DNA of 62,239 nt, filler included, from Jimgerdemannia flammicorona (lineage: Eukaryota), in assembly GCA_003990765.1 (NCBI GenBank). It is 3 parts of 3 records of this genome, joined end to end, with 100 filler letters (N's around TTAATTAATTAA, not from the genome) between each part and the next. Parts side by side here need not be neighbours in the genome. Positions count along the whole stretch, not along the records: positions 20,782 to 41,461 come from RBNJ01001615.1; 2 more parts are not named here. One strand, given 5' to 3'. A program made the translations under genes and the position numbers. Shown here piece after piece: positions 5,801-53,079 of this stretch. A model generated the notes under the pieces. It saw only the letters and a list, made by a program, of their open reading frames with translations. It was not told the DNA's origin and did not search any database. Within the stretch, counting starts at the first letter, position 1; every line of letters starts with the position of its first letter.

Positions 5801-5819
5801 TTTTTTTATCTAAACCTAC

Positions 5820-9315: not shown

Positions 9316-9360
<45 letters not shown>
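9316..9360 (+). repeat. Poly(A) tract, possible retroposon tail
   Basis: About 45 consecutive A. Confidence 0.6.
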
Positions 9361-17987: not shown

Positions 17988-18327
17988 TCTATGTGTACGT
18001 TTGCAATGCTTAGTTTTGCAATGACCATTTTATAATTTTAAATGCTAATTATATAAAAGTCAAAATATCCCCTCATTCTTGGCGGGACCACCAACCTGTT
18101 CGCGGACAAAATTACCAATGTCCTGGGATGCTTGGGTATTGCCGTCGACCAGGAGCGACTCGAGCATCTGATCCCGGCTCTGACAGACAAAAAATCCATT
18201 GTGTGCTGGATTTGAATTTTACCGCGATCACGGATTGTTGAAATTGACATCTCGATAATGTGGCTTATAACTACGTCATCTTTGAGATACGCACTATCTG
18301 GAATAATAAACAATGCTCCCTCTTCAA

Positions 18328-18594
18328 GGTCCTTTCTCTGCTACCATACCAGTCACAAGGTTTTGGTAGACAACCTTCCAAGTCCCCTTTTCCCTACTTT
18401 TAGCCTCTCTACCTTAGGTTGGTTTGTTGTATCTGTAAGAATATAGTAGGAGAGAGGTAATAGTGATAAGTTGTCTCTTTATTGGTATCAGATCAGTGTT
18501 TTCTCTACTTTTTTGTAGTTTCTGATGTCTCTAGCTATATCTGAGGTGTATTCATTTTGGTGTAGTGTTTATTCCTTTTGCTATCATCAATAAG

Positions 18595-18636
<42 letters not shown>

Positions 18637-18638
18637 AG

Positions 18639-18670
<32 letters not shown>

Positions 18671-19667
18671 CACTTAGACTCATCCTTTATTACACCCATC
18701 TAATCTATATAAATACATTAAACCCAATCCCCCTAGGGGGGCCCCTCCCCCCTACCCCTTCTTGACAAAACACTACTCTATCAAATACAATTCCCACCCT
18801 TCCACCACTCTATTCATCAATAAGATATTATCATAGAGTATTATAGACTATATAGAGAGTTAGTCAGGTTTAAGTATTAAGTATTAGTATAGGGTCTCAG
18901 TATCTGTAGTGGGGTCCTCTGGGCTTTGGTGAGCTTCTTGGCAAGTACAGTACTGGTAGAGGTAACTATTTTTTCAGATAGAATTAAGATAGGAGAGGAG
19001 ATGACTATTATAGATAGATAGAAGAGTAATTATAATAGATTAGTTAAATACTAGGCTAGTGATAATTATTAAGACTGAAGTGGATACTGCATCAGTGAGG
19101 CCTTCTGATTGATAAGATAGTAGGTATCACTCTTTGCTACTTTTAGCAATATATGAGATTAGGCCCTAGTTATTAGAAATAGTCAGAGAGCCCAAGGCTA
19201 TCTAGATCAAATGTCTTGGCTATACTTAACTAAAATTAGAAGCTGATATAGCAATATAATCAAGGTCTGCAGACTTGAGTAATAGGGTATTAGAGATCTC
19301 TTTTTACATATCTTATATATAAGTTCTCTACTTATCTCATTAGGAAGAACTAGGTTCTATCTACTATTCTATACTTTGATAGAGATTTTTCTTTATCTAT
19401 CACTTCATTTGGAGTAGTGGAGACTATTTTATTTAGCTCAGACATGGTCTTATATATATATATATTAGAGTGTTGAATATATACTTTTAGTATTAGTATA
19501 TAATCACTTTCTCTCTAGTAGTAGAGAGAGCATAATATATAGAATAAGATATAGGCTAATATAAGCCCTGCTATATCTAATATAGTCAAGCTGCTAGATA
19601 ATACTTAATTTAGATTTAATAGAAGTATAGTACTCAGAGAGTAGTAGGAGAGATTTTTGATCTATAT
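18328..19667 (+). mobile_element. Poly(A) retroposon family copy 1 (most decayed), truncated by hAT insertion at 19668
   Basis: Colinear with 32917-34050 from the same 5' end (GGTCCTTTCTCTGCTAC) to TTTTGATCTATAT. Confidence 0.8.
18600..18813 (-). mobile_element. Short 5'-truncated poly(A) retroposon insertion
   Basis: ~65-nt poly(T) at the left end; 16-bp TSD TCATCAATAAG(G/A)TATT at 18584-18599 and 18814-18829; absent from the paralogous copies. Confidence 0.8.
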
Positions 19668-20106
19668 TAGTACTCTAAATAAGTTAATTTAATCTGGATT
19701 AGATTTGGATTGAATTCAGATTGAATCTCATCTAGATTAACTTGGATAGAAAATAGGCTAATCCAGATCAATTTAAATTGATCATTGTTTTGATTTCCAA
19801 ATTAGACAATTAAATATTTATATCAATAACTTAATAAATAATTATCCAATTTTGATAATTCTGATGTTATTTGAAAGTCCTTAATAAGTCCTTTCTAATG
19901 ATACCAAGACTATTAAAATCAGATTATATATTGCTGAGCTATTAAGAAAAATATTCTTTTGAAGAAATTTCCAAAATTGGTAAGTTGGATATTTTTCTTG
20001 ATAACTCAGCAATGTATAATCCAATTTTAATATTCTTGGTATCATTAGAAAAGTCTTATTAAGGGCTTTTAAATAACACCAAGATTATTAAAATTTAATG
20101 ATTATT
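19668..20106. mobile_element. hAT-like MITE left part with a long palindrome, interrupted by an LTR
   Basis: TAGTACTCTAAATAAGTTAATTTAATC resembles the TIR of the 6624-7079 MITE; inverted arms of ~118 bp at 19838-19956 and 19988-20106. Confidence 0.6.
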
Positions 20107-20326
20107 TGTAACAATTTCACAGTCATATTTAGTCTTAGTATATTTTTGCATCTTTTAGTTAGTCTTTTCTTGTTATTTCTTAAACATTCTACTATGTTCT
20201 GCTATCTTTTACTTGCTTAGAAACCTTCTCTTGATATCCAGATACTACTAAAACATTTTTGTCTTTCCTTGACACCAAGTATCTTATCTTAGCTAGTTAT
20301 AGAACCTTTTAAAACATTATAGAATA
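20107..20326 (+). mobile_element. Partial LTR of the dUTPase chromovirus family (same as 35046 and 40654)
   Basis: Starts TGTAACAATTTCACAGTCATATTTAGTC and aligns with the first 220 nt of the 464-bp LTR. Confidence 0.9.
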
Positions 20327-20681
20327 GTGTTTGCTGTGCCTGCATGGGCATGGTGGGAGAAGGACAATGGTGATGAGTTGCCCCTTTATCGGTGTCAGAT
20401 CGGTGTCTTCTTCACTTTTTCGCGGTTTCTGGTGTCTTCGGCTGCGTCTGGAGTGCATCCGTTTTGGTGCGGCACCTTCTTCCTTTTGCCGTCGTCAACA
20501 AGGTGCTGTCTCGGTGTGTCTCGGGCTACGTAGGGAGTCGGCCGACCTTGGGCGTCAAGTGCTCAGTGTAGGTTACCTGCAGGTCCTCGGTGCCTGTGGT
20601 GGGGCCCTCTGGCTTTGGCGAGCTTCCCGGCGAGCGCGGTTCTGGCGTAGGTGACTGCTTTTCGGGTGATGTCGGGATGGG
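20327..20681 (+). mobile_element. Poly(A) retroposon family copy 2 (young, CpG intact, 5'-truncated, runs into the gap)
   Basis: Aligns to ~33015-33368 and ~18422-18990 but retains CpGs. Confidence 0.85.
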
Positions 20682-20781
20682 NNNNNNNNNNNNNNNNNNN
20701 NNNNNNNNNNNNNNNNNNNNNNNNNTTAATTAATTAANNNNNNNNNNNNNNNNNNNNNNNNNNNNNNNNNNNNNNNNNNNN
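20682..20781. other. Artificial contig spacer
   Basis: 100 nt of N with a central TTAATTAATTAA. Confidence 0.95.
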
Positions 20782-22461: not shown

Positions 22462-24177
22462 ATGTATCAGGCACTCGTTATCTCTTCCTTGGTCGGTGTT
22501 GTCTTTCTACAAAGCATGACCGATGGGAACTATAATCTGACTTGGTTATTTCTCGGCTTCATGCTTTCGCAAATCTGTTGGTCGCCGTCCTCAACTCAGC
22601 GGGTAACCTCATCACCTTACATAACCTCGCCAAGCACCCCCAACACGACGCACGCTGACGTTCAAGCTACCATCCAGACCCCGCCTAGCATCCAGACCCC
22701 ACCTAGCAACCAAACCCCGCCTAGCGCCCCTAACATGGCGCAAGCTAGCATCCAGACCCTGGCAGATGAGCTTGTGAAAAGGGTATTATATTTTCGTTCG
22801 GGTATATCACTTGCGCGCTTTCGCTCTGAGCTCTTGAACATCCCCTAAAACTCTTTTTGTCCTTCATCGGACTATCCTCTGGATAGCTTGCAGCCGCCCA
22901 GGATGATATCGCGAGTGCCAAGAATATGACAGAAACACTTTTAAACCAGGTTGGTACAGTACAAAACTCCGCCAACAAAACGCGGGCCACAGACTTTGCG
23001 CCTTCTCCTCAGAAAAAAAAAAATAAAAAAAAAATAAAAATAAAAATAAAAATAAAAAAAACAGCGATGTAATCGTATCAGTTGCTATACTGTGCCGTGT
23101 GGATCGGCATAATAGTTGACCGCGATATTGATTTTGTAGAGCTCCGCTCTCAAAAACCCAGACCCTCTGACTTAACAGCTTCCATCATATTCTTATTTCA
23201 AGTGTAACAATTCTCTCAAAAGCACATCAAACGAAGATGAATTGAAAAAGAAGTTGGAACATTTACAGAACGCGGTAATACGAAATGTTTAAGGACTCCT
23301 AAGCTACTTTGTTGTACGGTGTCTCATTCAAAATCTATTTCATTTTATTTATTTATTTCAAGTACAACAAGGCCCTTCAGAAAGTGAAACACGAAGAAGA
23401 ACTGGGGCGAATCCAGAGGGAGAAAGAAATACGGCTCAAGCAGCTTCTCGAACAGCTTCAGAAGGAGAAATCCGCTAACGAGAGAAACTTCTTAGAGAAC
23501 CTAGAGTCGGTGAAGATTGAAAACGTCACGTGGTGGGCAAAGGTTCAAGAGAAAGTGGAGCATCTTCAGAAAGAGGTAAGATAATGGCCTTCCAAAGGAG
23601 CGAAGTTATTGTATAGTTCCTATTCATTGATATGCTATCCTTTAAACTTCAAGTCTGCCCAAGTCTCCCAAGACAAAGAGAAGGAGATAAAAGCTGCACA
23701 GACTTTGCGTAACCAAGTAAGATGACAATCAAGACATGTTGGGAGTTTGCGTTTAGTTCTTTTTTAAGGGGTGTAGCGGTTTCCAAAAACTTACGTAGCT
23801 TTACTATGCAGCTTACCGAAGCCCAAAAATTACAAAACGAATACAAGACGATAATAAGCCAGCTGGAAGCAAATGTTGGTCCCGTGTCACTTCACTGAAA
23901 TTTCTAATTTGTTAAGCAAATCCTCGACCTACAATCTACATGCCCCTATCTCTTTTTCCAGTTGGCCGGAGCCAAACGCCAGTACCAGAATCTTCACGAT
24001 AAAGTAACACGACAACTTCAAATTTATTACGTTGCTCGTAACAAAATACGAATTCGATCTCTGATTCGACCTTCTTCAAAATCAAATGTAGCTTATAAAA
24101 GCACAATATCTTGGCCGTGAGGATCAATGCCGCATTGAAGAATTAAACAAGAGCGTGAGTTTGGAATTGAACTCAAT

Positions 24178-24210
<33 letters not shown>

Positions 24211-25769
24211 CAAAAGAATGAGCGGATTTGTCTTCGTTGGCATATCGCTTCCCACTCGACCAACTCAAACGGCAAAATGCATTCCATTTTACCACATAGC
24301 TGAACGACGTCAAAGCCAAAAATGACGACACCATAAAACTAGCGAAAGAAGAAATACAAGCCCTTAAATCGTTAGAATCACAACTACTTGCCAAGGTTAG
24401 TTCGAGCAGATTTCCTCCGTTTCGCTTCGGTGTGCAATCCCTCGATGGCATCGCCTTGACGTATTGAGCCACGGAACAAAACACCAGGACAAGGGAGCGA
24501 AAGAAGAAATCGAGAGGCTAAAAGAAGAGCTACAGAAGTCGAAGGTTTGTTCGATGTTAAAATGTGAAGAGTACAGAGTATTATTTAAGAATTGTGCTTT
24601 GCGTGAATATATAATATAATAATCCTCTCCCTCTCTCGGTTTTTTTTTTTTTTTTTTTTTTTTTTTTGTGCAATAGATTCTTTTGACCGAAGCCCGTTTG
24701 GAAAAGGTATATAATTAGCATTTCATTGTGGTTCAGGCGTGGTAGGCCGACAATGACACTTTCCGGCTGACAAATTGTAACCCTCATCTGGTATGTTAAT
24801 TTTTGCAGCTTAACAGGCTAAAGGAGGACGGTAATGCTGCATACAAGGCTGGAAAGCTTCAAATAGCATGTGGACACTGGACGGCGGCACTGGAAATCGA
24901 CCAGGAGAACGCGGACATAAATGCAAAATTGTATTCGAATAGGGCAGCAGTGTTTACTAAGGTAAGATTTTATGTTGGTGCTTTTTTTTTCCCGTGAAAC
25001 GGTATTTTGGAGATGATAGAGATGTTGTGATGGGAATGACCAACGCGACGCTTTTAAAAACTAAGCTTGGTAAATACGCGGAGGCAATGAAAGATTGTGA
25101 CGCAGCCATCAAGCTGGACACAAAATTTGCAAAGGTATACGCTCGACGGGCGCAATGTCACACTCATATGCTCAACTTTGAGGATGCCATACGAGACTTA
25201 AAGCGGGCGACAGATCTCGACAAAAGTCAAGGTGCGAAATAAATTTCATAATCAACTTTCGCACCACGGCGTTTTTTTGCTAAAATTCACCTGGCTCGTT
25301 TTTTTTTTTTTTTAAAAAAAAAAAAAAACAACAAAAAAAAGAATTCAAAAAACAACTCGATGAAGCTCAGCAGAAGTTTGTAGAATCTCTAGAAAAAGAC
25401 CCTTACGAAATCCTGGGCCTTAAATGCCATTGCACCGACGGCGAAATACGGAATGCGTACCGCCGGCTTGCACTGCAACACCACCCTGACAAGAATGGCG
25501 GTGACATTGTGGCGGAGATACGCTTCAAGTGGATCGCCGAGGCCTACACGATGCTGAATAAGGCCGAAAATCGACGTGCATTCGCTGTGGTTCCTGAATG
25601 GTTTCGCCAACAATGGGACCGGTCCGATTGCGAACAGTTCAGGTCCGAGTCCGATGTCGATGCCAGGAGAAATTGGGAAGGCACCAATGAAAATAGTGCC
25701 GGTACCCAGAGCAATCCTACGAACGAGGGATCGAAAAAGAAGAAGAAGAAGAAGAAGGGAGGGAGATGA
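22462..25769 (+). CDS. Multi-exon J-domain co-chaperone: N-terminal hydrophobic segments, coiled coil, 3 TPR, J domain (DNAJC7-like C-terminal half)
   Basis: About 14 exons with GT-AG introns. TPR exons LKEDGNAAYKAG..LYSNRAAVFTK and LGKYAEAMKDCDAAIKLD..YARRAQC; J domain DPYEILGL..AYRRLALQHHPDKNGG (HPD 25482-25490)..FKWIAEAYTML; stop at 25769. Confidence 0.75.
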
Positions 25770-28700: not shown

Positions 28701-30985
28701 TGATCATAATAAGAAAGATAACAAGGAAAGACCTCTTAATTAAAACCCTGTAAGGACTTTTTCAAGAATGTTGGGAATTAGAAGAAAGAAAACTTGCCAA
28801 GAAATAGAAGAAGAAGAGAAATAAAATCCAAGACCTTAACTCTAAGTTGGACAAATTAGTTGGATAAATCAAAAACTCACCACATATAAAAATTGAAGCT
28901 ACTCACAGGACAGCAGAGGGTATATACTATAAAGAAATAAAGACTATCTATCTAGAGATAACAGAGGCTATCAGCTATAAGAAGAAAGAAGATATCTAGT
29001 CTGAGACAGAGCCCAAGTCTAATACTTTTACTATAGATAGTTTGGACACTATACTATAGAATATAATAATAGAAAAAGTGATTGAAGAGACTTAGAACTA
29101 CTAAATTGAAAAAATGAAACTCAGTATAAGAAGACTGAAGCTCATTCTATCAAAGACTTTGAAGAAGAAAGTAATAGTAAAGTCTATAGTGACTTAGACC
29201 TATATCTAACCAAGGTTATCATCAGAAAAACAGTCTATATAGCTGAGAAAAGACAGAGACCAGTAGGGAGGCCATCTAGAAACACTAGCAGAAGAATTAT
29301 CTAAGAAAAAGATAAAGAAAATAAAGAAGAGTAGGTTGAAATATCTCCTTAATCTCTCTTACCTTTTGTCTCTGAAATAAATGAACTATTATCAGAGAAT
29401 AAAGAGATAGAGCAAGAAGAGCAACATTCTATCATTCTAAAGCCCAAGAAGAAGTACACTCTAAAGAATATATCTAGAGATATCTACAATAAAGTCTAGT
29501 AAAAGATTCAAAAAGCCAAGATAGAAGTCTCTCTCCTATAGTTCCTACAACTGATATCTATTGGAGTTTGAAATAAACTATTAAGAACTACCAGGTCTGA
29601 TACTGGTCAAGTCTCAATCTTATAACAAGAACTAGTTCCAACTATTATCTAGGCTGTAGAAAAATATATCAGCATATATCTGCATAGAGATATTAGAGGA
29701 CAGAAGGTAATAATCCTTATTGACATAAGAGTAGCTATCTGTATTATTATCAAATAATTCCTAGACACCCTCCAGTGACCCATTATTGGACTATCCAATT
29801 TCAGAATTATAGTAGTAGATAGAGCTTGAACTCAATCTCTTAAAGAAGTATGAAATATTACTATCTCTCTGAAATACATTCAGTTTTCTATTTCAAAAGC
29901 TATTATTATCAAAGCTATTATCTATAATATGATCCTTGGTACCAACTGGATAAAGGAAATAAATATAGTTATTGGTATTGATCAACAGATGTCCAAATTT
30001 AACTATAGAGAAAAGAAATATAGAATCAAGATAATTAGCTATAAGTAATTGAAGAAGAAGAAGAAGGTCACTATCTAGGAAGAGTATACCAATAGTGATG
30101 AATCTACTATAGAAAAAGAAGAAGAATCTGAAGATAGAAATGATTCCAGACTTAATTCATAAATCAATTTAATAAATGATAAGTCAGAATACCAAAGATA
30201 TGATCTCTATTATAATTAGAGCTATTACAGGATAAGCCAGAGGATATCTATCTGTCTCAAAAGATACAAGTACTCTAAATATTTCTCCAAGATTATTGGA
30301 ATAAGGAATTTGTCTGGTATAGTCTGCTCTGAGTATAGAAAAAGAAAGAAGAAATACAACTACTCTTCAATAATACCTATAACTAAAGCTGCAGAAGTAC
30401 AGGCAATCTGGGGTCAAGAAATATCTAAAGAAAAAACCCCTGAACAAGAAGTTCCCAAACAGGAGGAGCTCTCTGAACTTATCTCCTAAGATGATCTCTG
30501 CTGAATACTGCTAGAAGATAATGACCTCTGGAATATTAAAGAAGAACCAAACATAGTCACTATCATTTAAAGATAAGAAATACACCAGGAGAGAGCCTTT
30601 TAGCTAGAAAGATATCAGTATCAAATGGTCTTTCACTCTTCTCAAAACTATTGCTATTAGTACTATTTATTAAACTAGTAAGAAAGATAGAGATACTGTA
30701 GACTACTAATTATAATTGTACAGATTACTACCTTTCAAAAAACTACTATAATATTAAAAAGACAAGCCAATAGATAAAGACACTTCATCTGAATAAAAGT
30801 ACAGCCCCTAGTTACTCTTCTTCTAATTTATGATAAGGATGGATACTGATTCCCAAGATAGTAAAAAATTAATAACTAAGAACTATATTTTCAAGTAATA
30901 GAATATTATAATTATAAAAAAACACCCAGATTGCTGAGACTGTCTATATTAGAAGATTTATCTCAGCTAAGATATTACTATATAT

Positions 30986-32438
30986 TGTAATGGTGACCCC
31001 AGAATGATGATATCAGCACAGGAGACAGTCTTTCTTTATAAGCCACCAGATCAGAGTATAAGAAGATCATACAGTATACGAGATGAGCAATGATGACCAA
31101 CTGTGAGTCATTGTGACCACAGCACAAGCATTCTGAAGAATATAAAAGAAGGATCAAGGAACTGCAGTAGCAGCAACAAGAACCCCCAATCCCAAAATAG
31201 CTCAAAGACTTACCACAAACAAAATGCCTACTGCTCGTCAAACCTCAAGGTCAAGGAATCATCAAGGTATCTTGGTCGAGGAAAGGATGTTCCAAGACAT
31301 CAGAAGAGCCATGAGGACCCACTCAAGAAGGACTCCTAGCGTCAACCTGGGTACTGCAGACCCTTATCACATTATCCTCTACTGCTGTGAAATGGAAATA
31401 AGGATCACCATTGCCACTGAATGCCTCCAAATGTGGCAGGAGTATGAAATAGGAAACCTCCTCTGCCGGGAGTTCCCACAGGCCAGCCCTCAAGAGCTAC
31501 CAGATGCCACCCCCATGGACCTATGTGAGGCAAGGACAGCAAAGAAGATCCATCAGATCTTCAGGCATACACTATGGTCGATCCCCAACTTGGAGTATGT
31601 TAGAGTCTCAGACTTCAGAGATCTGTCATCCCACTGTATCAATGCACTAGAAGCCAGGGTAGCCACAGAAGCCCAGTCCACCATCACCCTCAATAGTGAA
31701 GAAGTAGAAGACTTCTGATACCCTATCCTTCAGGACAACCCAGACCAATTCCTGCAAGAATTGATCTCAGTATTCCAAGGCCCAAGCATCCGGGTTAGAT
31801 CTCCCCAAGACCCCACATTTGTCCCCTATTTTGTGGAAGAGAACCTCATAGACTGGAGAGCTCCAGACCTTGTTCCCAATTTTCCCGCCACACCCGAACG
31901 TGATGACATCATCGATGACGTCATCCCGCATGACATCGAAGCATGCGAAAATGACGAAGTACGCAAGACGCGCAGCCTGCATGACGAATTCGTGGACCTC
32001 ATCTCCTTTAGTGATGATGATGATGATGATGACGAAGCTCTCATGATCCTGAACTTTCTGCTCTAAGTTCTTTGTTACACTGGATAATGCCAGCACTGGT
32101 ATTTTGATGTGGTACTAAATAATGCCAGCCCTGGAACTTAGTAGTTTTAGTTATTGGAATTTATATTTAGCTTTATATCTTAGCAACCATTGAATTATAT
32201 TTTGTATAAATACCTCTCTTATTTCCTCTGAAATAAAGTCAGTCAAGTTCACTTACACACTTCCTTGCAAGCAATCTAAGAGATAACTAGACAGTTAAAG
32301 ATAAGAAGTTTGAGGACTATAAGACCTTGGGAAGGCACTCCAATAAGAACTTGCTTATAACAAACTTGAGTTAGTCTAAGAGATACACCTTGAAGAGAAT
32401 CTGGCATATTCGAAGGACTCAGTGACCACTACATGACA
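30986..32438 (+). mobile_element. Solo long LTR (1453 bp) containing an ORF
   Basis: Termini TGTAATG...CATGACA, flanked by ATAT(AT) on both sides; TATAAATA at 32205; AATAAA at 32232. Less decayed than the flanks. Confidence 0.7.
31224..32066 (+). pseudogene. LTR-encoded ORF A, 280 aa with one premature stop, acidic C-terminus
   Basis: ORFs 31224-31718 and 31761-32066 are in frame, joined through a single TGA (31716-31718, likely from CGA). Confidence 0.7.
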
Positions 32439-32759
32439 ATATATATTAAAGAAAGGAGACAACAGAGCTCAGATCTAAAGAAACCAGATTAAGAAATCAA
32501 AAAAGAAGACTCTCAAGATCAATAATCTGGAAGATGACATTCTAACTCTCATCAGATATACAACTTATCAAAAATGGATAAAAGATACTATCAACTTTAT
32601 AGAAGCCCTAGATTTTATAGAAAAAAGAGGAATCAATTATCTCTGAGACTCCTCTACCAGAGTCAGATAGCTATATCTTAAGCTTAGAGTCTAGGGGCTT
32701 ATCTTTACTGAAGCCTTAGCCCAAGGTCAACTCAAACTCAGTAAAATGGTGCTCAGTAT

Positions 32760-34480
<1,721 letters not shown>

Positions 34481-35045: not shown

Positions 35046-35509
35046 TGTAACAATTTCACAGTCATATTTAGTCTTAGTATATTTTCACATCTTTTAGTTA
35101 GTCTTTTCTTATCATTTCTTGAATATTCTACTATGTTCTGCCACCTTCTACTTACTTAGAAATCTTCTCTTGGTGCCCAGACACTACTAGAACATTCTTG
35201 TCTCTCCTTGGTACCAAGTATCTTATCTTAGCTAGTCATGAAATCTTTTAGAACATTGTAGAATAGTATTAGTCAGCTTTGTGGGGAATCTATTTTTTGG
35301 CATTTCTCTTTCTTTCCAAAATCCTTCAAGATCTTTCTTTCAGATTATATATAAATATCCTTATTCTCTATCTAAATAAAGTTCAGAATATTTTCTCTCA
35401 GAAATCCTTCAAGAACACTTGAACCTTTAAGTATCTCTTTGAACTACTTTAGGCCAACTAGAACTTCCAGATTTAGCTGCTTCCTCTTAAAGAAACTAGA
35501 ACCATTATA
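35046..35509 (+). repeat. 5' LTR
   Basis: Direct repeat of 40654-41117 with the same length. Confidence 0.95.
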
Positions 35510-36559
35510 CTTAGTAGCAGTGGTGTCATTATATCTTGTCTTATTAAAAAACCTTATACAAATTCAGAAACCAGTTACAACTAGTCATATAAACTTGAAA
35601 TGAGCCATGAAGAGTCAGCCTATTAGCCAGACCTCTCTGGAGAAGTAGGAGAACTACAAGCCAGTATAGAGGACATAATCAATACTATGGCCCACCAAAT
35701 CCAAGAACTTTTAGAACAGCAGAAAACAAGAACTACAAGTATATTACATTCTACCATAGGACTAGTTAGTTTCAAGCCACTCAAGCTAGTTACCTTTGAT
35801 AGTCATTGAGGAGGATTATCTACAGATGCATAGACCTTCTAGTTAGATTAATACTTTGAGCTTATAAGAATAGAAGAAGATATGTAAGTCTAATTTACTA
35901 CTACACTTCTTTGAGAAAATGCAGCCATTTGGTAGTACAATTACATTATGACTATATCTATATACTCATATGTATAAATCAAGAATTGGGAAACTTTCAA
36001 GAGAGCCCTTTATAGGCAGTTCAAGCCTACTAATGCTACCAAGCTAGCCAGAGATAAGCTAGTAAACATCAAGCAACTCAAGTCTGTGTAAAGCTACAAT
36101 ACACAATTCCTATCAATCCTACTTAAACTACCAGTGATAGTAGAGGATGAAAAGATAGACCACTATGTCCAAGATCTGAAAGGAAATACATGAGTCAAGA
36201 TCAAGCTAGAAGAGCCACAAAGCCTTAATAAAGTTATGAGGATTGCTAATAGATTTGATATCATCACCTTTGGTAACTACTTTGAACTAAAACACTATAA
36301 GAAGAACCACTTTAAGAACTGCTACAAGAACCAACCAAGGATAGTTGGCCCAGCACTAATGGACTTAGACATTATGAACAAAAAGAACACCAAGCTCACT
36401 TCTGAAGAAAAGAACCATTTGAAGAAATCTGGAGTCTGTTTCTTCTATTACCAAATAGGACATATTGCAACCAAATGTTCTAAGAAGACTAGCAAACCCT
36501 CAAGATCAGTCACCATGTTGTCCAAGGACACATCTGTCAACCTCACTACCAGTCAACCC

Positions 36560-36970
36560 AAGTTCAAGATCAAGAAGCTTCATCTGAAGGCCCAGGTCCC
36601 TCAATATCAAACAGAAGAAGCCATTGGTCTTGACCTATACTCAGTCAAACAAGTCACTATTCCAGCTAAGGGCTGAACTCTAATGTCTACTAGAATTACA
36701 GTTCAATGTCCTGAAGAACATTATGCCAGAATTGTATCAGGATCAGGACTCAGTGTCAAATATCATTTAGATATAGGTACTGGTATCATTGACCCAGACT
36801 TTTGAGGACAAGTTCAAGTTCTACTTATTAACCAGAAGGATCAAGACTACACAGTTAAGGAAGGAGACCAAGTCATATAAATGATCCTAGAAAAAGCCAG
36901 TTAACTCAATTATAGAAGTTCAAGAACTCCCTGAAACCAAATAAGATCAAAAAGATTTTGACAGTATTGA
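36560..36970 (+). pseudogene. dUTPase domain between gag and protease of the inner chromovirus
   Basis: AIGLDLYS (I), ARIVSGSGLS (II), GIIDPDF*G at 36782 (III), EGDQVI (IV), *DQKDFDS (V). In frame with the gag zinc knuckle in ORF 36236-36676. Confidence 0.9.
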
Positions 36971-39900
36971 TCAAGCTGCAAGTCTTAGTAAAAATCAAGC
37001 TCAAGCTATACTTATTTTCAAAGGCCTAGTCAAAGAAAAAGAAATTCAAGTACTCATAGACAGCAGAGCTGCAGAGAACTTTATCAATTAGAATCTCATT
37101 GAAAGCCTCAAGATCCTTACCAAGCCTATACTCAAGAATAATAGCATAGTCACTGCAGATAGTATGCTGTACCCCATTGAGTCAATTGCTACCAAACTAC
37201 TCATCAAGATTAAGAAATATTGAGAACAAGTAGACTTCAAAGTTGCACTACTAGGAGATCATAATCTGATCTTAGAAAAACCCTGGCTTATGAAACACAA
37301 CCCAGATATTGATTGGTGTAAGAATGAAGTCACTCTACTCTAAGATAGAGCCAACATCACTATCAAGACAGACAAGACCATGAGCAAGACCCAGATTGCA
37401 ATACTGTCAGCTATATAGTATAAGAGAGTACTCAAGAAGACAATGCATATCTATATTATAATGGTCTATCTCAAGAAATAAGACAAGAGACTATCAGTCA
37501 ATGAAAGTGTCAAGTTACTGCTAGAAGAATTCAAGAATGTCTTTCCAGACAAGCTATCTGGTCTACCACCTATATAAGAAGTTGATCATGAAATCAAACT
37601 GACCCCAGAAGCTGTACCACCCAAGAAATATATGTACTATATATTGCTACTCAAAATTGAAGTAGTCAAGAAGGAACTAGAAGAACTACTTATATAAGGA
37701 GCTATCTAGCCAAGTAAATCTCCTTATGGCTCACCAGTCTTATTCATCAAAAAGAAGGATAGTACTCTATAAATATACATAGACTATCATATACTCAATA
37801 AATTCACTATCAAGAACTGCTATCTGCTATCCTTGATTGATCAAATCTTTGATACTCTTAAGAATACCTTATATTAGAATACCACCAGATTTAAATCAAG
37901 CCAAAAGACATTCTCAAGACTGTATTCATGACTCCCTTTGGACTTTACAAATTCCTGGTCTTAGCATTTGGTCTTACCAATATACCCACCATATTCCAGA
38001 CCCTAATGAACAAGATATTCAAGGATCAACTATTTATTTTCCTGTTGGTATATCTTGATGACATCCTGATCTTTAGTACAATTAAAGAAGAATACCTCAA
38101 ATACATTCAAATAGTCTTAGAGATCCTGTGAAAACACAAGTTTTATATCAAGCTCAAGAAGTGTGAATTCTTCAAGAAACAAGTCGAATACCTTGACCAC
38201 ATTGTCTCTGTACAAGGAATTCAAGTAGACCTATACAAGATAAAAACAATTGAAAAATGACCCATTCTGTTGAACCTTATAGAACTTTGATTCTTCCTTG
38301 GTCTAGCTGGCTACTACTGTCACTTTATCAGAAACTTCTCTGGTATTGCTGAGCTACTGACTAACCTCATGAGGAAGACTCCACACTCAGACCACTATAT
38401 ATCCTACACCTGGGACCACTTCTGTCAATAAGCCTTTCAAGAACTCAAGAACTGCCTGACCCATGCTCTAGTCCTGTGTAATACAGATTAAGGCCTAAAA
38501 TTCATGATCACTACTGATGTATCAAATTTTACCATTGGAGCAGTTCTGTTACAAGATGATGGCAAAGAACATTATTCTATTGCTTTTGAGTTCCATAAGT
38601 TGGCCCCAGCTGAACAAAAGCTAGCTACTCACAAGAAGGAACTACTGGCAATAATATATACACTAGACTACTGGCAATGCTATCTAGAAGATATTGAGTT
38701 TGATGTCATTACTGATCATCAATCCCTCAAGTACATCAACACTCAACCTACTCTGTTATATCTACAAGCCAAGTGGAGCCTCAAGCTTCAAACCTTTAAC
38801 CTGATAATTATCTACAAGCCTGATAAGATACTTGTAGTATCAGATGCCTTATCAAGATGCCCTGACCTTACCACAATTATACAAGTCACCTTGGCATCAG
38901 AATTCCTAGACAAAATCAGATAAGCTTATAAAGAAGACATAGTTGCCACTAGAGTTTTCTTGAACAAGCTCAAGGATATATATACTATCAAGAATAATCT
39001 GATCTATCATCAAGATCAAGTCTATCTACCTGAAAACATAAATCTACACTATAAGGTTTTGCAAGAACACTATAACTCTCCTCTTACTGATTATCTGGGA
39101 ATCAAAAAGACTGTTAAAAATATCTAATGCCACTACTATTGGCTAAGTATAGTCAAGAAAATCAAGAACTATATTGCCAGCTATGATCTATGTCAGCACA
39201 ATAAGTCTATCAACTAAGTGCCAGCTAGTTTTCTATAACCACTGCCAATTTCTACTAAGAAATTCAAGTAAGTTACTATAGACTTTGTAACTTAACTACC
39301 ACAAACTCAATCTGATACTAATGCTATCATCATATTTGTTGACCACCTGATCAAGACCATAGTTACTGAACTAACCACTACTACTACTACTGCACCTGAG
39401 ATTGCAAAAATCTTCTTCAAGTCCATCTTCTATCACTATGGCCTATTATGAGTAATTGTCAGTAATCATGACCCCAAGTTTACCAGTTACTTCTGGAAAA
39501 CTCTCTTCAAGACTCTGGAAACCCAATTAGCTATGTCTACTGCCTTTTATCTAAAAACTAATGGATAAACCAAGTACATGAACAGAACTCTAGAACAAAT
39601 GATAGAATCTATATTTCTTATGAGTAAGATAATTGGGACCATTATCTGACTTATGCAGAGTTTGCATACAACAACACTGTCCAATTATCTACTGGTCTTT
39701 CCCCTTTCCAGTTACTCCATAGTTAAGATTCCAAGACCTCTGTAAGTCTATTCCCTTTCAAGAAAAGTAGTCAAATACAAGTTCTTACCACCAAGAACCT
39801 TATAGAAAAAATAGACAAACTACTCAAGATTGCCACTGTGAATCTTTAGAAAGCTCAACAGTATCAAGCCAAGTATGCTGACAAGAAATACCATGATGTT

Positions 39901-40653
39901 GCTTACACTGTTAGAGATCAAGTCCTACTGTCTACTGAGAATCTCAAGATATAATCTCAAGTCAACTACTCTTCAAACAAGTTTTAACCCAAATATATTG
40001 GACCTTTCAAGATCACTGAACAAGTCTCTGCATTCTTCTACTGCCTCAAGCTACCTGAAACTATAAGAGTACACCCAGTCTTTCATATGTCATACCTCAA
40101 GACCTAGAACCAGTCATATCCTACTCTGGTCAAATTCCTAAGCCTTCTGCTCTTGTGATTATTGAAGATCATATTGAGTATAAAGCTGAGAAAATTCTTG
40201 ACAAATAAATCTGCTACTACTATCCTGAATACCTAGTCAAGTAGATGGATTACTCTAAATATGATACTACCTGGGAACCACTGGTCAACCTCAAGAACTC
40301 TCAAGATCTAGTTCAAGACTTTAAGATAAAATATATTGTCCAATCCCTATAGTGACTTCATTGGATTGTTGATGATCTATAGTAATGACTAGTGTCTTAT
40401 GCATCAGAAGTTTACTTTGGGACCCCAGAACCAGCAGAACATTTAATAAATAAGAAGTCCACTGAAATGAAGCTACTAGCTGGATTTAAACCCCTCTCAG
40501 TTAGTTAGTCTAGTAATAGGCCCTCTGTCTTATATAAGGATAGCTAATCTTCACCAATATACTGATATAAGTTTGAGAAATTTTGGTTAAATATATCTAG
40601 TCTTGTGTTACCTAAGAACTCAACAAGGATGTTAGTTCTTAAAGAGAAAGAGA

Positions 40654-41117
40654 TGTAATAATTTTACAGCCATATTTAGTCTTAGTATATTTTCACATTT
40701 TTTAATTAGTCTTTTCTTATCATTTCTTGAATATTCTACTATGTTCTGCTATCTTCTACTTGCTTAGAAACCTTCTCTCAGTACTCAGATACTACTAGAA
40801 TATTCTTATTCCTCCTTAGTATTAAGTATCTTGTCTTAGCTAGTTATGAAACCTTTCAGAACATTGTAGAATAGTATTAGTCAGCTTTGCCAAGAATCTA
40901 TTTCTTGGCATTTCTCTTTCTTTCTAAGATCCTTCTGAATCTTTCTTTCAGATCATATATAAATATCCTTATTCTCTGCCTAAATAAAGCTCAGAATATT
41001 TTCTCCCAGAAATCCTTTGAGAATACTTGAACCCTTAAGTATCTCTTTGAGCTACTTTAGACTAACTAGAACTTCCAGATTTAGCTGCTTTCTCTTAAAG
41101 AAACTAGAACTATTATA
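40654..41117 (+). repeat. 3' LTR
   Basis: Direct repeat of 35046-35509, preceded by the PPT. Confidence 0.95.
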
Positions 41118-41461: not shown

Positions 41462-41561
41462 NNNNNNNNNNNNNNNNNNNNNNNNNNNNNNNNNNNNNNN
41501 NNNNNTTAATTAATTAANNNNNNNNNNNNNNNNNNNNNNNNNNNNNNNNNNNNNNNNNNNN
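41462..41561. other. Artificial contig spacer
   Basis: 100 nt of N with a central TTAATTAATTAA. Confidence 0.95.
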
Positions 41562-47901: not shown

Positions 47902-48071
47902 TTTCGGTGGTAAGCAACAAGGCGAGAAACGCGAAGTCAGTCACATAAGGTAATTAAATGAATAAAATGACGTCACATGCTTGGTCTCCCTCTTCAACTT
48001 CCCTTCCTCACCTCCTCACCTCCTCACCTCACCTCCTCACCTCCTCACCTGAACCCCTTGGACCTCAAGCC

Positions 48072-51000
48072 ATGGGAGACACAACAACCCACCTCCTCTA
48101 CGACATAAACATCTCCGCAACATGGTCAACCGAACAAGACACCACAAACTCCCATGACTCACCCGCACTCTCTTACCGTCGCGTCGCAAACGTGCTCGCG
48201 CGTGAGCTCGACGGCATTATCGTTTCAACTACCGTCCCTCCAGCTTTACTCCAGACGCTTCCAAAACTCAGAAGCGATTGGCAGCTCTCCCTCTCTCCTG
48301 ACGGTCAACTTCTTGCCGTCTTTCAGGAGAGCAGAATAGAGATTCGCCCCAAAAAGAGCGAGTTTGAAACTGCGCACGCTTACTACAACACAGGGCGGGA
48401 TCCCTTTTCCAAATGGCGCAAGCTGGCCTGGAGTCCCGACTCAAAGCTGGTGGTCGCATCGAGGAGCGACGGGACCGTCGAGGTTCTAGACACCGAAGGA
48501 AAGCTCGTGTGCGCAATCATGTCCAAACTGGCAGCCAATACCTCCGCCACAGCTTTTGCGGAGCCGACCGACCCTGCAACCGACTCCAACAACGATACGG
48601 GTCACACTGCGTCTCCGCCCTCCAATCAATTGGATTTTGCTTCTTCCCGCACCTTTTTCATCGAACCTTTTGCCCACGTCGCGTTCGTGGACCCCCGCCG
48701 TGGTCTCCGTAAACCTCGTACTGTCGAGGGTCACGTGTATGCCTACGAATTGCTCACCGTTACCTATAACGGCACGGTGCGAAGTTACCTCCTGAACACC
48801 GCCGAAACCGCCGCCTCGTCTTCAGGCAATCCCGCGATGCGTCTACCGCGGTCTACGACCACATACGTCACTGATCAACAGAACTCCGATCCGAATTACT
48901 TCGTGTTCCATCATCGCTTCTCGGTGGCGCCGTGTATGGCGGCCGTGACGTGCGGTGTTGTGGACGCACAAAAAGGGGTGTTGTGCTTGGGTGGGAGGCT
49001 ACGTGGGCCGCACGTGAAAGCTGGATTAAACGAAAAGGGAGAGGACGACGAATATGTGGCTTCGGGGATGACATTTTGGAAGATGACGTATGAGCAGCCG
49101 TATTACCAGAGATTAGAGTCATCCGATGGGGGTGAAAGCGTTGGTGCGGACGGCGACGATGCGATGAGCTATCTGGCTCAATTCAAGGGTGCGGTGGCGA
49201 GCCTGACCCATTACGGTGCCCGCGCACACTGGAACGAACTCGTACTGACGATCGTTCCCTCACCAGATTACCAGCATGTTGTGACGCTAGACCTTTCGGG
49301 CACTGTTCGAGTTTGGCGAACCTTATGGCATCACAAGGATCACAAGTCCGGCGATCATCCGGCCGTGGCACTCTCGCATACTTGGGACCGCTCCCAGCTC
49401 AACCACTTTGCGCGGTCTAAAGAGTACTCAGATCTGTCTTCATCCGCTCTCGCGAAACAGATTGAATCCCATCATCGCGATGGCGATGACCTTGCAATGA
49501 TACCTGGGCTGGAGAACGGACGGGTGGTATCCATTCAGTGGTGGTCCGCGGATGCATTGATTCTTGGCTACGCCCGTGGCACCGTCATTATCGCGCGATT
49601 GCCCCTCATGAATAATATATTGGGCACACAGCCAGAGATCTTTCGCTCGTGCCTTGAGATCGCCGCGACATCAGCACACGATCAGTTCTTGGTGTTAGAG
49701 TACGCCACGAAACGACTCAAGGCTCAGGTGCAGGGCGAGAGACTCGTGGCCCTCCCGCAAGACTCCGAACCGGAATCCAACAATGACCTGCCAGCTCTCG
49801 ACTTTGATGTGGAGCTTTCGACCTCTCCTCTCTCGACCCCACTCGTGCGCGTCGTCACCGCGCTTGCACGCTCGCTCCTACGGCTCCTCTCCTCTCAGCC
49901 GACCGTTGACATCACCATTTCACAACGTCACGTGCGCCTCATTCGCGCAACCTTGATCCTACCACTAGAGTACCTGCACCAAAAGATTTCCGCGGAAGAG
50001 TACGACGCCGCGCTGATAGTGGCGAAGGATTTCGGGCTCGACGCCGACGTAGTGTTCCAGGCGCAGTGGCGAACGGTAAAGGTCGTCGACATGGAGGTCG
50101 TAGGACGGGTGTTGGGGAGTATCAAGAACAAGGAGTGGGTCGTTCGCGCGTGTTTGGAGCGCGTTCCCAGAAACCTGGAGGAGGCGAAGACATTGTTCGA
50201 ATACGGGCTGAGACAGACAGATGTAATGATGAGACAGGTAGTCGAGAAGGTTGGGGGGGGGGCGGGGGCGGGTCGCGGGGAGATTCAGGTGGTGCTGTCG
50301 AAAGAGGAAAGAGTGATGCTGCGCAGTCGTCTGCGCTTCTTGACATACTTGGACCGCCTGAAAACGTTTGAGGAGATTACGAAACCCCGCGCGGAGCTTG
50401 CAAAGAATGAACACGGGGTGCAACATGATCAAGATACGACGCATGACGGGGGCGCGTTAGGAGTAGGGGATGGCTTAGACTCCTATTTTGTATCAGGTTA
50501 CACCCGCTTCCGCAATGCCGACCTTGTGTCGGAAGCTGTTGCCTTTGCGCGCTCAGAAGACTTTGATGCGCTCGCTGGGTTGTTCACGCGACATGGTGAG
50601 GAGGTATTGCCTTACCGGCTCGCAATTTTGGAAAATGTTCCCGAGACAACAGACCCCGACGTGTACGAGCGATTTTTACCCAGAGTGGTGTGCTCGGACG
50701 ACGACGAGGAGGAACAGGAGGAGGAGGAAAGGCAAGAGGCGCGTTGGCGCGAGGAGCCGTGGCGAGAGAAAGATTGGATCGAGCGAGAGGCAGTAAGAAA
50801 GTTGGTGGTTGGATTAGATGATGAAGATGAGGATCAGCCTCGCAAAGGAGCGACCGAAGCGCTTGAGCCGACGCCCTATCCGGCCCCTGCCTCGACCATC
50901 ACGCAGTGGTACGTGGCGCGTGCGCACGCCATCGACGAGCACTCGGGACAGGTGAATCATGCGCTCACGCTGGTGCAACAGGGTGTTGCGGGTGGAGTAC

Positions 51001-53079
51001 GGGGTTTGGAGCGGTTGGAGGAGGATCTGACAGCGTTGTCGAGGCTCGTGTATGAGTGTTGTCCGGACACATCGAGCGTGGCGACTGAGCTGGATTTGGT
51101 TGCGTTCGAGGCATTGGCGGAACCGGAAGTAGTGGAGCTGTATTTGAGGGGTACGAATGCCGAGAGGATTGTGGAGGATATGCGGAGGTTCGTTGTACCG
51201 TATTTGAGAGCGATACGGAGACGGAGGGCGAGAGAAGGAAAAGGAAAACTGAAGGATGGAAAACTGGAGGACGTCATGGAGCTATTATATCAATACTTGC
51301 TCAATGTGTCAGTCGAGCATCTGGATAGGTGCTGCCTCGTGATCGAGGCGTCCAAGCCAACACTGTCGTATGAAGAACGTGTCATTACAGACGACGTGGA
51401 GCTTGCAAGAGTCGCCTTGGCCGTTCTATACGGCAGCGATGCTGTCGATCAACTCCCTCTCGTAACTCGCATCTTCGAATCGCTTCCCGTATTCGAAGAC
51501 ATTGACGATGCCTCCGCCGCAGAAGAGAACCAAGTCTCACCCATCAACATTCGCACTCTGTCCCCGCGTCTTGGGCCACACGACTTCTTCCCCGCCCTTC
51601 GCACCTTCGATGAACGTGCCTTGACCAGCGCCATTGACCAGCTTGAGATCCACCTCAACGCTGCTGAGATATTATCCCGCTACTTGGCTGCCGTGCCGTT
51701 GCGATGGTTTTTGCAGAGCAGTGGCGATGTAGATGCTCAACGCAAGCTCTGCGTCAGGCTAGCAGCGCAGGCTGCTGGGGGTGTAGAGAAGGGCGGAGAG
51801 CGGCTTGAGAGCGAGGACGAGTGGATGCTGTTGCTAGAGGACATGCTCAAGTTACAGGATGGTGGAGCGGGAGTGTTAGGCACAATACCGGAGGAGGAGA
51901 TGCATACACATTTCGTGACCAGTTTATTGCGATGTGGCAGTATCCTTTCGAAAAGTGCGAGTCCCAATGGCTGTCGATACTTGTTTTAATACTAATCCCA
52001 TGTTATATTCTGCATTCATCTTTGACCCTTGATTTTGTCCTATGGATTTTTCGAAACCTTTCCTCTGATAGGATTCCGACTTGCACGCGAAGTTCTTTTC
52101 CCTCAGGACCGGCCAAGACCTCTGGACCTTCAAGTGACGGAAAAACTGGTCATCGATGCTTCTAGAGAGTTCTTTGATAATGCTGAATCCGGAAACATGA
52201 ATACCGGGAACCTCAAGTTGGCATATGAGTGGTTGGTATCTAATCTTTGTACATGAGATATATGTTTTGTCTTTCTAACAAAAGGTATCGTACTGGCACT
52301 CGTTCTTCCGCAGTCTTAAGATCGTTTCTGCATCGCCAGCGATCCGAGCGGAGCTCGACCTGATTGAAGCGACGCATCAGCTTACCGAGTACAAAGTATA
52401 TCACCGCCCAGGCATACGCATAATGCCGATACAAATCCGCCAGGCATCCAACCGCCTGGACCTCATCTCTCGCCTCCTGAGTACGAATCCAGAAGCCTAC
52501 CGACAATCCTCCCGGATTGTTGAGCTCGCACGAAAACTTGGATACCGCAATGATCGTGTTGCAGAGATCCGCGTGATGGCGATGCTGGCCGACGCCGCCC
52601 TGCGTGACGAGCATTATGAGGTCACGTACCACATGTGCATGGATTTGGTCGAAAAGGGACGCAAGGCTGCTACTCCCTTAGGCAATTCCACGACCAAAAC
52701 CGAGATCAACGACGTTTCGTGGCGGATATGCTACGAAGTAGGTAAAAACGAGGCTTATCGCGATCTTGAGAAACGCATGACGCTGATCGCTCTTGCGTTG
52801 ACCATGTGCCCGCGCGAGCATGCGGTCGACATCTTGAATGTTTGGCGGCGGCTTGAGGTCGAGATGGCGGCGTCCATCACAGCGCAGGCCGCCGCTGCGC
52901 AGAAATCAAGTTCCACCAGCCTGTTAAATCAATGGGCGACGCTTGGTGGAGTTCTTTCGTCGGGAGATACTGATGCACATCGTCACGCGCACAAGGGACA
53001 GCAGCCGCATCAGGAGGGAGTAGAGACGGGTAGAAAGAGAGATCAGATAAAGAAAATTGTGGGCGGATGGTTGTGGTAG
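48072..53079 (+). CDS. NBAS: NBAS/Sec39 tethering-complex subunit; exons ~48072-51939, 52072-52231, 52314-53079 (alternative in-frame ATG at 47958)
   Basis: N-terminal beta-propeller DPFSKWRKLAWSPD; LTYLDRLKTFE; HGEEVLPYRLAILENVPETTDP; WYVARAHAIDEHSGQV; LVIDASREFFDNAESGN; MPIQIR. Confidence 0.9.

Follow-up and report, generated by a model that had tools for sequence, protein, structure and literature searches.

A constrained protein-coding gene inside a long LTR of Jimgerdemannia flammicorona and its putative divergent counterpart in a second LTR-like segment

A solo LTR and the neighbouring chromovirus

The DNA analysed here, hereafter the window, is a stretch of 62,239 nucleotides joined from three parts of the genome of Jimgerdemannia flammicorona (GCA_003990765.1). 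At positions 30986 to 32438, on the plus strand, it contains a 1,453-bp solo long terminal repeat (LTR) of an LTR retrotransposon, which we call LTR A. This LTR carries an open reading frame (ORF) of 280 codons, ORF A (31224 to 32066, plus strand), which represents a real, constrained gene, and the copy of this gene in the window is dead. An LTR-like segment with a similar layout, segment B (60450 to 62239, plus strand), carries a frame of 365 codons, ORF B (60738 to 61835, plus strand), whose N-terminal domain is probably related to that of ORF A.

LTR A begins with TGTAATG and ends with CATGACA, which form an imperfect 7-nt inverted repeat matching at six of the seven positions when inverted. 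It is bordered by two copies of ATAT, at 30982–30985 and 32439–32442, which are recognised as a target-site duplication from the sequence and from an empty-site joint. The G+C content is 44% within the LTR and 30-33% in its flanks. Contigs of four public metagenome runs, including X1 and X4, were mapped onto positions 30786 to 32638, and the evidence was drawn from the joint and the loose ends, the cover outside the LTR being left unused. The empty target site, with a single ATAT, is present in two X1 contigs, which pass directly from 30981 to 32439 and lack the 1457 nt in between, four letters of the joint being ambiguous; the insertion of LTR A is polymorphic. As 1705 X1 contig pieces fall on the element, and as 20 to 39 distinct contigs cover many of its variable sites, LTR A belongs to a multi-copy, diversified family. 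Loose ends show how other copies continue beyond the unit: the best-supported one before 30986 closes with ten purines in a row, and the best-supported one after 32438 is identical in X1 (four records) and X4 (one 122-nt record), both among the 24 of 137 loose ends that were listed. The sequence that follows position 32438 in these copies reads TGG, two nucleotides past the terminal CA, and is primer-binding-like. Since a tract resembling a polypurine tract precedes the segment in other copies, a site resembling a primer-binding site (PBS) follows it, and an empty site exists, segment A is a solo LTR. The earlier note on this DNA had proposed as much, and its proposal is borne out by the TG..CA ends, the ATAT duplication, the empty site and the two junctions. 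What weighs against this assignment is that it draws on junctions in short metagenome contigs, among which there is no full-length element with LTR A. No second copy of segment A or B was found in the 62-kb window (blastn, word size 7, E<=0.01). The window likewise contains no partner LTR or adjoining gag-pol for LTR A, and no tRNA or Rfam family, sought there for the primer tRNA.

A decayed Ty3/Gypsy chromovirus lies 2.6 kb downstream of LTR A, at 35046 to 41117 on the plus strand. Its two LTRs are 464 bp long (35046–35509 and 40654–41117) and 89.4% identical. Read through many stops, it encodes a Ty3 capsid/gag, a dUTPase, a protease, a reverse transcriptase, an RNase H, an integrase and a chromodomain; the dUTPase domain (Pfam PF00692, E 4.9e-23) stands between gag and protease. 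A third, partial copy of its LTR is located at 20107–20331. The chromovirus shares with LTR A the LTR start TGTAA and a composite promoter block, TATAAATAYC followed after 10-25 nt by AATAAA and after a further 1-4 nt by TCAG. This composite occurs three times in the window, namely in LTR A and in the chromovirus LTRs at 35350 and 40958, where none would be expected by chance. It sits 305 nt into the 464-bp chromovirus LTR, and the metagenome relative of ORF A, L001, carries the same TATA/AATAAA/TCAG block. The 3' LTR of the chromovirus is preceded by a purine run leading into TGTAAT, much as a purine tract precedes the A-type LTRs, and the sequence after its 5' LTR resembles the junction after the A-type LTRs. 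In contrast, no ORF is present in the chromovirus LTR, and it is the gene that makes the 1,453-bp LTR A longer. These likenesses in promoter, terminus and post-LTR sequence lend indirect support to the Gypsy affiliation suggested by the earlier note, and the A element likely belongs to a Ty3/Gypsy lineage related to the chromovirus of the window.

The 1.45-kb unit could instead be something other than an LTR, such as a small mobile gene or a fragment of a host gene with TG..CA ends by chance, and its presence as a single copy in the window, with neither a partner nor an adjacent gag-pol, would agree with this. Nevertheless, other copies in two runs share the purine tract before the unit and the TGG-starting sequence after it, the empty site shows a 4-bp duplication, and the core promoter is common to bona fide LTRs. 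Moreover, no homologue was found outside LTR-sized contigs among 1.84 billion proteins. We therefore regard this alternative as highly improbable.

ORF A and its relatives

The frame of ORF A runs from an ATG at 31224 to a TAA at 32064–32066, with a TGA at 31716–31718 as its sole interruption. On the 5' side, it is bounded in both the window and L001 by an in-frame stop within the upstream TATA box and is therefore not a run-on of pol. Every relative aligned at the position of the TGA (eight in the alignment) has a tryptophan there, and nearly all mapped contigs have a G at 31718. The copy in the window has thus been inactivated by one TGG-to-TGA change, to which transition damage is added. 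The idea of the earlier note that solo LTRs spread working 'orphan' genes finds no example here, the window copy being a solo LTR with a dead ORF.

Relatives of ORF A were retrieved in several searches. A word-indexed search returned six relatives among 403 candidates, with 57-85% identity, and a profile search returned five representatives among the 1.84 billion proteins, which amounts to 20 relatives in total when cluster members are included. The 17 relatives whose sequence was read fall into about seven subfamilies and exhibit 41-85% identity to the window copy or to P0004, where compared. The frame is open in these twenty relatives, which belong to several subfamilies, and every full-length relative whose N-terminus was read (P0004, P0011, P0012, P0016 and P0018) starts with MP. 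All relatives are found on contigs of 0.5-4.8 kb, the one encoding P0012 being 4,848 bp long, and those that are named are labelled 'hypothetical protein'. A metagenome scan yielded one locus, on a 1,345-bp contig, whereas the A alignment yielded 332 pattern matches and no relative in a scan of viral contigs.

Selection was estimated by comparison with L001, in which the ORF is intact, spans 323 codons and is 61% identical to the window copy. Over codons 1-215, the Nei-Gojobori method gave pN 0.22, pS 0.68, dN 0.26 and dS 1.78, hence a dN/dS ratio (omega) of about 0.15, while omega was about 0.66 in the acidic tail. The 3' non-coding part of the LTR can be aligned with L001 at the core promoter only. 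Two observations weaken the case for constraint. The dS against L001 is near saturation, which makes the value of 0.15 approximate. Among near copies, the 30 best-supported variable sites of the ORF divide into 15 synonymous and 15 non-synonymous changes, an omega of roughly 0.5; these sites include the window copy's own damage, and random transitions would give one third synonymous. The earlier note had taken a ratio near 1 as the outcome that would speak against a selected gene, and the ratio found over codons 1-215 is far lower. Its description of the family as uncharacterised is also sustained, the family being real, under selection and without a Pfam, PDB or fold match.

Compared with their nearest intact relatives, the window copies of both frames (31224–32063 and 60738–61832) display many replacements of R by C, H or Q, of W by a stop, of P by L and of A by T, all of which correspond to C-to-T or G-to-A transitions. 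Relative to the X1 contigs, 110 of 126 change types (87%) are transitions. As the site contexts are mixed, no claim is made for repeat-induced point mutation as the cause of the damage, this process and CpG decay both being possible.

Segment B, its reading frame and the rest of the window

Segment B starts with TGTAAG, where the G+C content changes from 29% to 44%, and is located about 30 kb from LTR A along the window. Its visible features are a TG start, a layout like that of LTR A and TATA/AATAAA signals, and the window ends inside it, at 62239. We interpret it as the putative first 1.8 kb, at the 5' end, of another LTR that looks unrelated, although its 3' end, its target-site duplication and its PBS fall outside the window, which counts against this interpretation. 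ORF B is interrupted by three stops, at 60861–60863 (TGA), 61362–61364 (TAG) and 61530–61532 (TGA). The intact relative P0014 covers the N-terminal 128 residues with 88% identity and has an arginine at the first stop, and the intact relative P0009 covers the C-terminal 247 residues, two thirds of the protein, with 64% identity and has a glutamine at each of the other two. As these two relatives together read through all three stops, ORF B likewise derives from a genuine coding frame and has since decayed.

The layouts of LTR A and segment B match. Within the 62 kb, the exact 11-mer GTATAAATACC is found at 32204 (139 nt past ORF A) and at 62024 (190 nt past ORF B) and nowhere else; AATAAA comes after it at 32232 and 62150, respectively. 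In LTR A, it overlaps a core promoter-like block at 32205–32244 (plus strand) composed of TATAAATACC, 17 nt, AATAAA and an initiator-like TCAGTC, a composite pattern also present in L001. In segment B, TATAAATA (62025–62032, plus strand), belonging to the shared 11-mer, precedes TCAG repeats and an AATAAA at 62150–62155, 125 nt after the TATA box. The common layout described in the earlier note, with a TG start, a long ORF, the TATAAATACC block and a subsequent AATAAA, is thus present in both segments, and, as also stated there, the two have no detectable DNA similarity (blastn, word size 7, E<=0.01).

At the protein level, the similarity between A and B was assessed by profile comparison. With a first alignment of seven A rows, hhalign gave a probability of 2.6% and a P of 0.018 against B. 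The probability rose to 40.7% with an 11-row A alignment that included distant members, and to 44% (P 2.3e-4) when these 11 rows were compared with a 3-row B alignment, the match covering 107 columns (A 41-150 with B 26-132) at 16% identity. The observed score of 36.0 was reached by none of 229 column shuffles of B (mean 14.5, standard deviation 2.6, maximum 26.4), and the reversed controls scored 12.3 and 12.8. In hmmsearch, the A profile gave 16.0 bits on P0014, while none of 1000 shuffles scored above 8.5 bits. Among the 711 ORFs of the window, defined from stop to stop with at least 40 codons, ORF B was the best non-self match of the A profile (E 0.0021), the next best having an E of 0.75. 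The B profile, in turn, picked P0007 and P0012, with per-comparison E values of 3e-5 and 1.8e-4. In the AlphaFold models of A and B, which are of low confidence, the three aligned motifs are helical in both proteins and the rest is largely unstructured. The region chosen by hhalign is the same as that aligned by eye in the earlier note, whose alignment is therefore above chance (0 of 229 shuffles).

Several results nevertheless argue against a common origin. BLASTP detects no significant similarity between the two ORFs (E 0.86), and the hhalign probability remains below 50%. The search of the 1.84 billion proteins with the A profile failed to recover the B family. The B profile, for its part, misses ORF A among the ORFs of the window, and the B alignment has three rows only. 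The AlphaFold models are poor, with a mean predicted local distance difference test score (pLDDT) of 50.5 and 33.6, as is the Atlas model of P0004 (pLDDT 0.35), and hhalign's alternative alignment shows no A-B similarity beyond the N-domain. A second candidate similarity, at the motifs PYFVEEN and PLFLDNY, was rejected as unsupported by that alternative alignment. The profile and structure comparison called for in the earlier note thus stands in part: the profile similarity (P 2.3e-4) holds for the N-domain only, and on the structural side there are low-confidence models with motifs helical in both.

One reading of these results is that the two ORFs are not related but have separate origins in two LTR families, and that chance and similar composition account for the pattern common to them. 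The BLASTP value, the 16% identity over 107 columns, the hhalign probability of 44%, the failure of the library-wide profile search to find B and the lack of similarity outside the N-domain would all be expected in that case. By contrast, neither the 229 column shuffles nor the 1000 residue shuffles reach the observed scores, ORF B stands alone as an outlier in the set of 711 ORFs, and the score grows with the diversity of the A alignment. The two ORFs also have the same position, strand and start context, with the TATAAATACC block downstream. An independent origin consequently appears unlikely, while deserving marginally more weight than the other alternatives considered here. We consider it probable that the N-domains of A and B, of about 105 residues, are homologous. 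As the decayed ORF B would share this domain with A, A and B appear to be divergent members of one LTR-borne gene superfamily, linked through a helical N-terminal domain.

Elsewhere, the window contains host genes and repeats. The host genes occupy blocks of 45-56% G+C and include a DnaJ-domain protein (25284-25766, plus strand), an NBAS/Sec39-like tethering protein in two frames, probably split by an intron (47958-53076, plus strand), and the mitochondrial ribosomal protein L28 (53317-53922, minus strand). Pieces of another repeat family lie on both sides of the LTR A region, beside chromovirus LTR copies (18327-20681 against 32916-33995, 67-82% identical), a pattern that points to old insertions, either nested or rearranged. 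At 20682-20781 and 41462-41561, right after an LTR-related repeat in each case, there are two pairs of 44-N runs, which are probably assembly gaps or masked sequence. Several direct repeat families that are 78-81% identical and spaced by 3.3-5.4 kb are found at 390-8107, in a block of 24-28% G+C, and resemble decayed repeats in a tandem or nested arrangement. The AT-rich blocks repeatedly contain long A/T runs, homopolymeric or of low complexity, at 34083-34220, 9316-9360, 18598-18665, 23013-23061 and 24640-24667.

Expression signals, protein features and possible role

LTR A holds a predicted promoter (TATA and initiator) and poly(A) signals, the motif being common to verified LTRs. In addition, a TATA-like box, TATAAAAG, is located at 31141–31148 (plus strand), 83 nt before the start of ORF A, and is a candidate internal promoter. 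The 11 nt around TATAAAAG are identical in L001, where the box stands 65 nt before the ATG, and the leader after it is poorly conserved. In segment B, a TATATA at 60663–60668 (plus strand), 75 nt before the start of ORF B, is a candidate internal promoter by analogy with A and L001. At the other end of LTR A, an AATAAG at 32342–32347 (plus strand), 137 nt after the TATA box, is a candidate poly(A) signal, with a spacing like that in B.

On the plain reading of the sequence, ORF A would lie in the U3 (unique 3') region, upstream of the start of the genomic RNA, whose 5' end would thus lack it. Being upstream of the LTR promoter, it would therefore need its own promoter or splicing for translation, and this requirement is a difficulty for a gene in U3, as both are putative. 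If the upstream box works, each LTR would be a complete gene ending at the poly(A) site of the LTR.

The signals can also be read in another way, with the upstream TATA as the sole promoter of the LTR and TATAAATA followed by AATAAA as a 3'-end signal. In that case, an R (repeat) region of about 1 kb would contain the ORF, which would be the first cistron of both the genomic RNA and a short LTR-only mRNA rather than a U3 gene. The conservation of the TATAAAAG box before the ATG is consistent with this arrangement. Fungal poly(A) signals consist of a TATA-type element followed by an A-rich element, which is the form seen here. One study indicates that LTR borders need RNA data to be set and that TATA motifs may double as poly(A) signals (PMC3601003). 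However, the same block in the chromovirus LTR reads naturally as a promoter, with the initiator-like TCAG after it, and an upstream ORF of 280 codons would be expected to hinder the translation of gag. A long R region is thus unlikely, and we retain the placement of ORF A in U3.

The A protein has a basic N-terminus and an acidic tail, between which lie the helical domain and a conserved central block. The N-terminal 45 residues are arginine-rich, with a net charge between +6 and +8 in three of the four A members compared. The strongly acidic tails reported in the earlier note are confirmed, their net charge ranging from -14 to -27 among the four A members and reaching -40 in B (residues 133-365). 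No Pfam family was found for A, B or their relatives at E<=0.01, including zinc knuckles and Gag, capsid or nucleic-acid-binding families. At E<=5, the 11 A members gave ATG5_HBR in three cases (best E 0.028) and NpmA in one (E 0.026), which were treated as noise. The A profile had no PDB sequence match at E<=1, and the two PDB rows of the B profile, both at E 0.43 and from one protein (SKA1), were likewise treated as noise. In Foldseek, the best match of the A model in the PDB had an E of 0.83, which is meaningless at a pLDDT of 50. No neighbour was found in the ESM Atlas, where the best feature score was 0.83 and the template modelling (TM) score was at most 0.33 by query (0.41 by target).

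Taken together, the best explanation, to which we assign a probability of about 0.6, is that LTR A is a solo LTR of a high-copy family with a selected gene in its U3 region, that A and B belong to one superfamily, and that their protein has a nuclear role. According to this model, about 840 bp of the U3 region of LTR A would be a sense-strand accessory gene with its own conserved start codon, upstream of the TATA/initiator block, which would have been kept open under purifying selection while the family split into several subfamilies. The protein would be expressed from the TATA-like box 65-83 nt upstream of the ATG within U3, and the mRNA would end at the LTR's own poly(A) site, so that every LTR would be a self-contained gene. 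The tail of the protein, which is long and acidic, would probably be disordered. The protein may act in the nucleus for the element, most likely by raising LTR transcription or by countering silencing. Its identification as a transactivator of the family's LTRs or as an anti-silencing factor, suggested by composition and layout, is tentative. What counts against it is that the sole tie of the protein to transcription or silencing is its charge pattern, which also fits other roles that serve the element.

One such role would be in replication, with the LTR-borne gene encoding an RNA or Gag chaperone, an accessory of the particle or of nuclear import, or a partner of the chromodomain integrase for targeting. 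Any function needed by the element would account for the purifying selection and for the retention of the gene across subfamilies, and the arginine-rich N-terminus, besides being a possible nuclear signal, might bind RNA. A long acidic tail, however, is not typical of nucleic-acid chaperones, and the proteins show no zinc knuckles and no match to a Gag, capsid or nucleic-acid-binding family. Extra ORFs without an assigned role are known from other LTR elements, ORF0 of Retrosat2 being one (PMC3485330), which would agree with a role in replication. We consider a role in replication unlikely, and the nuclear role is preferred.

Precedents for a gene in this position are known from retroviruses, in which accessory genes separate the complex from the simple ones. 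The sag gene of mouse mammary tumour virus is an ORF in the U3 region of a retroviral LTR, and the lentiviral nef overlaps the 3' U3. As proposed for ORF A, both are sense genes that take up most of U3, are duplicated with the LTR and are located at the 3' end of the genomic RNA. They differ from ORF A in that the latter has no family match and no sign of a membrane protein, has a fungus-like host and belongs to a retrotransposon rather than to an infectious retrovirus. No homology of A or B to Sag or Nef was detected (Pfam, E<=0.01; PDB, E<=1 for the A profile). The VANC proteins, anti-silencing proteins of the VANDAL transposons of Arabidopsis, resemble the proposed protein as transposon-borne, fast-evolving accessory proteins that serve their own family, and are a functional model only. 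In contrast to A and B, VANC belongs to a DNA transposon, and no similarity was detected. To our knowledge, accessory genes are rare in LTR retrotransposons and almost unknown in those of fungi.

Two accessory genes of LTR retrotransposons are closer in kind. Retrosat2, RIRE3 and RIRE8 of plants carry ORF0, a lineage-specific accessory ORF without assigned function in elements with long LTRs; it is described as having about 10% similarity between related elements and as diverging far faster than pol, with Ka well below Ks (PMC3485330). This divergence parallels that between A and B, but ORF0 is located between the 5' LTR and gag, whereas ORF A is inside the LTR, and there is no sequence relation between them. 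The second, brtn, is reported as an extra antisense gene from Botrytis cinerea, in Gypsy elements of the Boty-like type (Zhao et al. 2011, cited in PMC8365987). It is an accessory gene without assigned function in a fungal Ty3/Gypsy element and in this respect resembles ORF A; it is antisense, whereas ORFs A and B are sense and inside the LTR, the comparison being by description only. The statement of the earlier note that such genes had not been described for fungal Gypsy elements thus stands for LTR-resident genes, of which no report was found, and does not extend to accessory genes in general, given the antisense brtn reported for Boty-like elements. The full-text literature, excluding subscription journals and supplements, yielded no report of a sense protein gene inside a retrotransposon LTR. 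An LTR-borne protein gene is therefore an arrangement that we have not found described for fungal retrotransposons.

Each element holds two copies of a selected gene that is located inside its LTR, and solo LTRs preserve this gene, which could therefore act in trans for the whole family. A bolder proposal, which we regard as more doubtful than the tentative assignment made above, is that of a fungal chromovirus-like superfamily in which each LTR, including the solo LTRs that remain once an element has been deleted, would be a complete gene, with an internal promoter, an ORF for about 270-365 residues and its own poly(A) site, and would encode a fast-evolving nuclear factor that activates the LTRs of the family in trans or blocks their silencing. 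If true, retrotransposons would have an equivalent of retroviral transactivators and of VANC, and such LTRs would readily give rise to 'orphan' genes. Genes carried in LTRs could influence how host genes close by are silenced or expressed, and could themselves be mistaken for lineage-specific orphans during annotation. The two LTR families, in which DNA similarity would have been lost while a protein domain and a core promoter were kept, may thus offer a testable case of the gain of regulators by retroelements.

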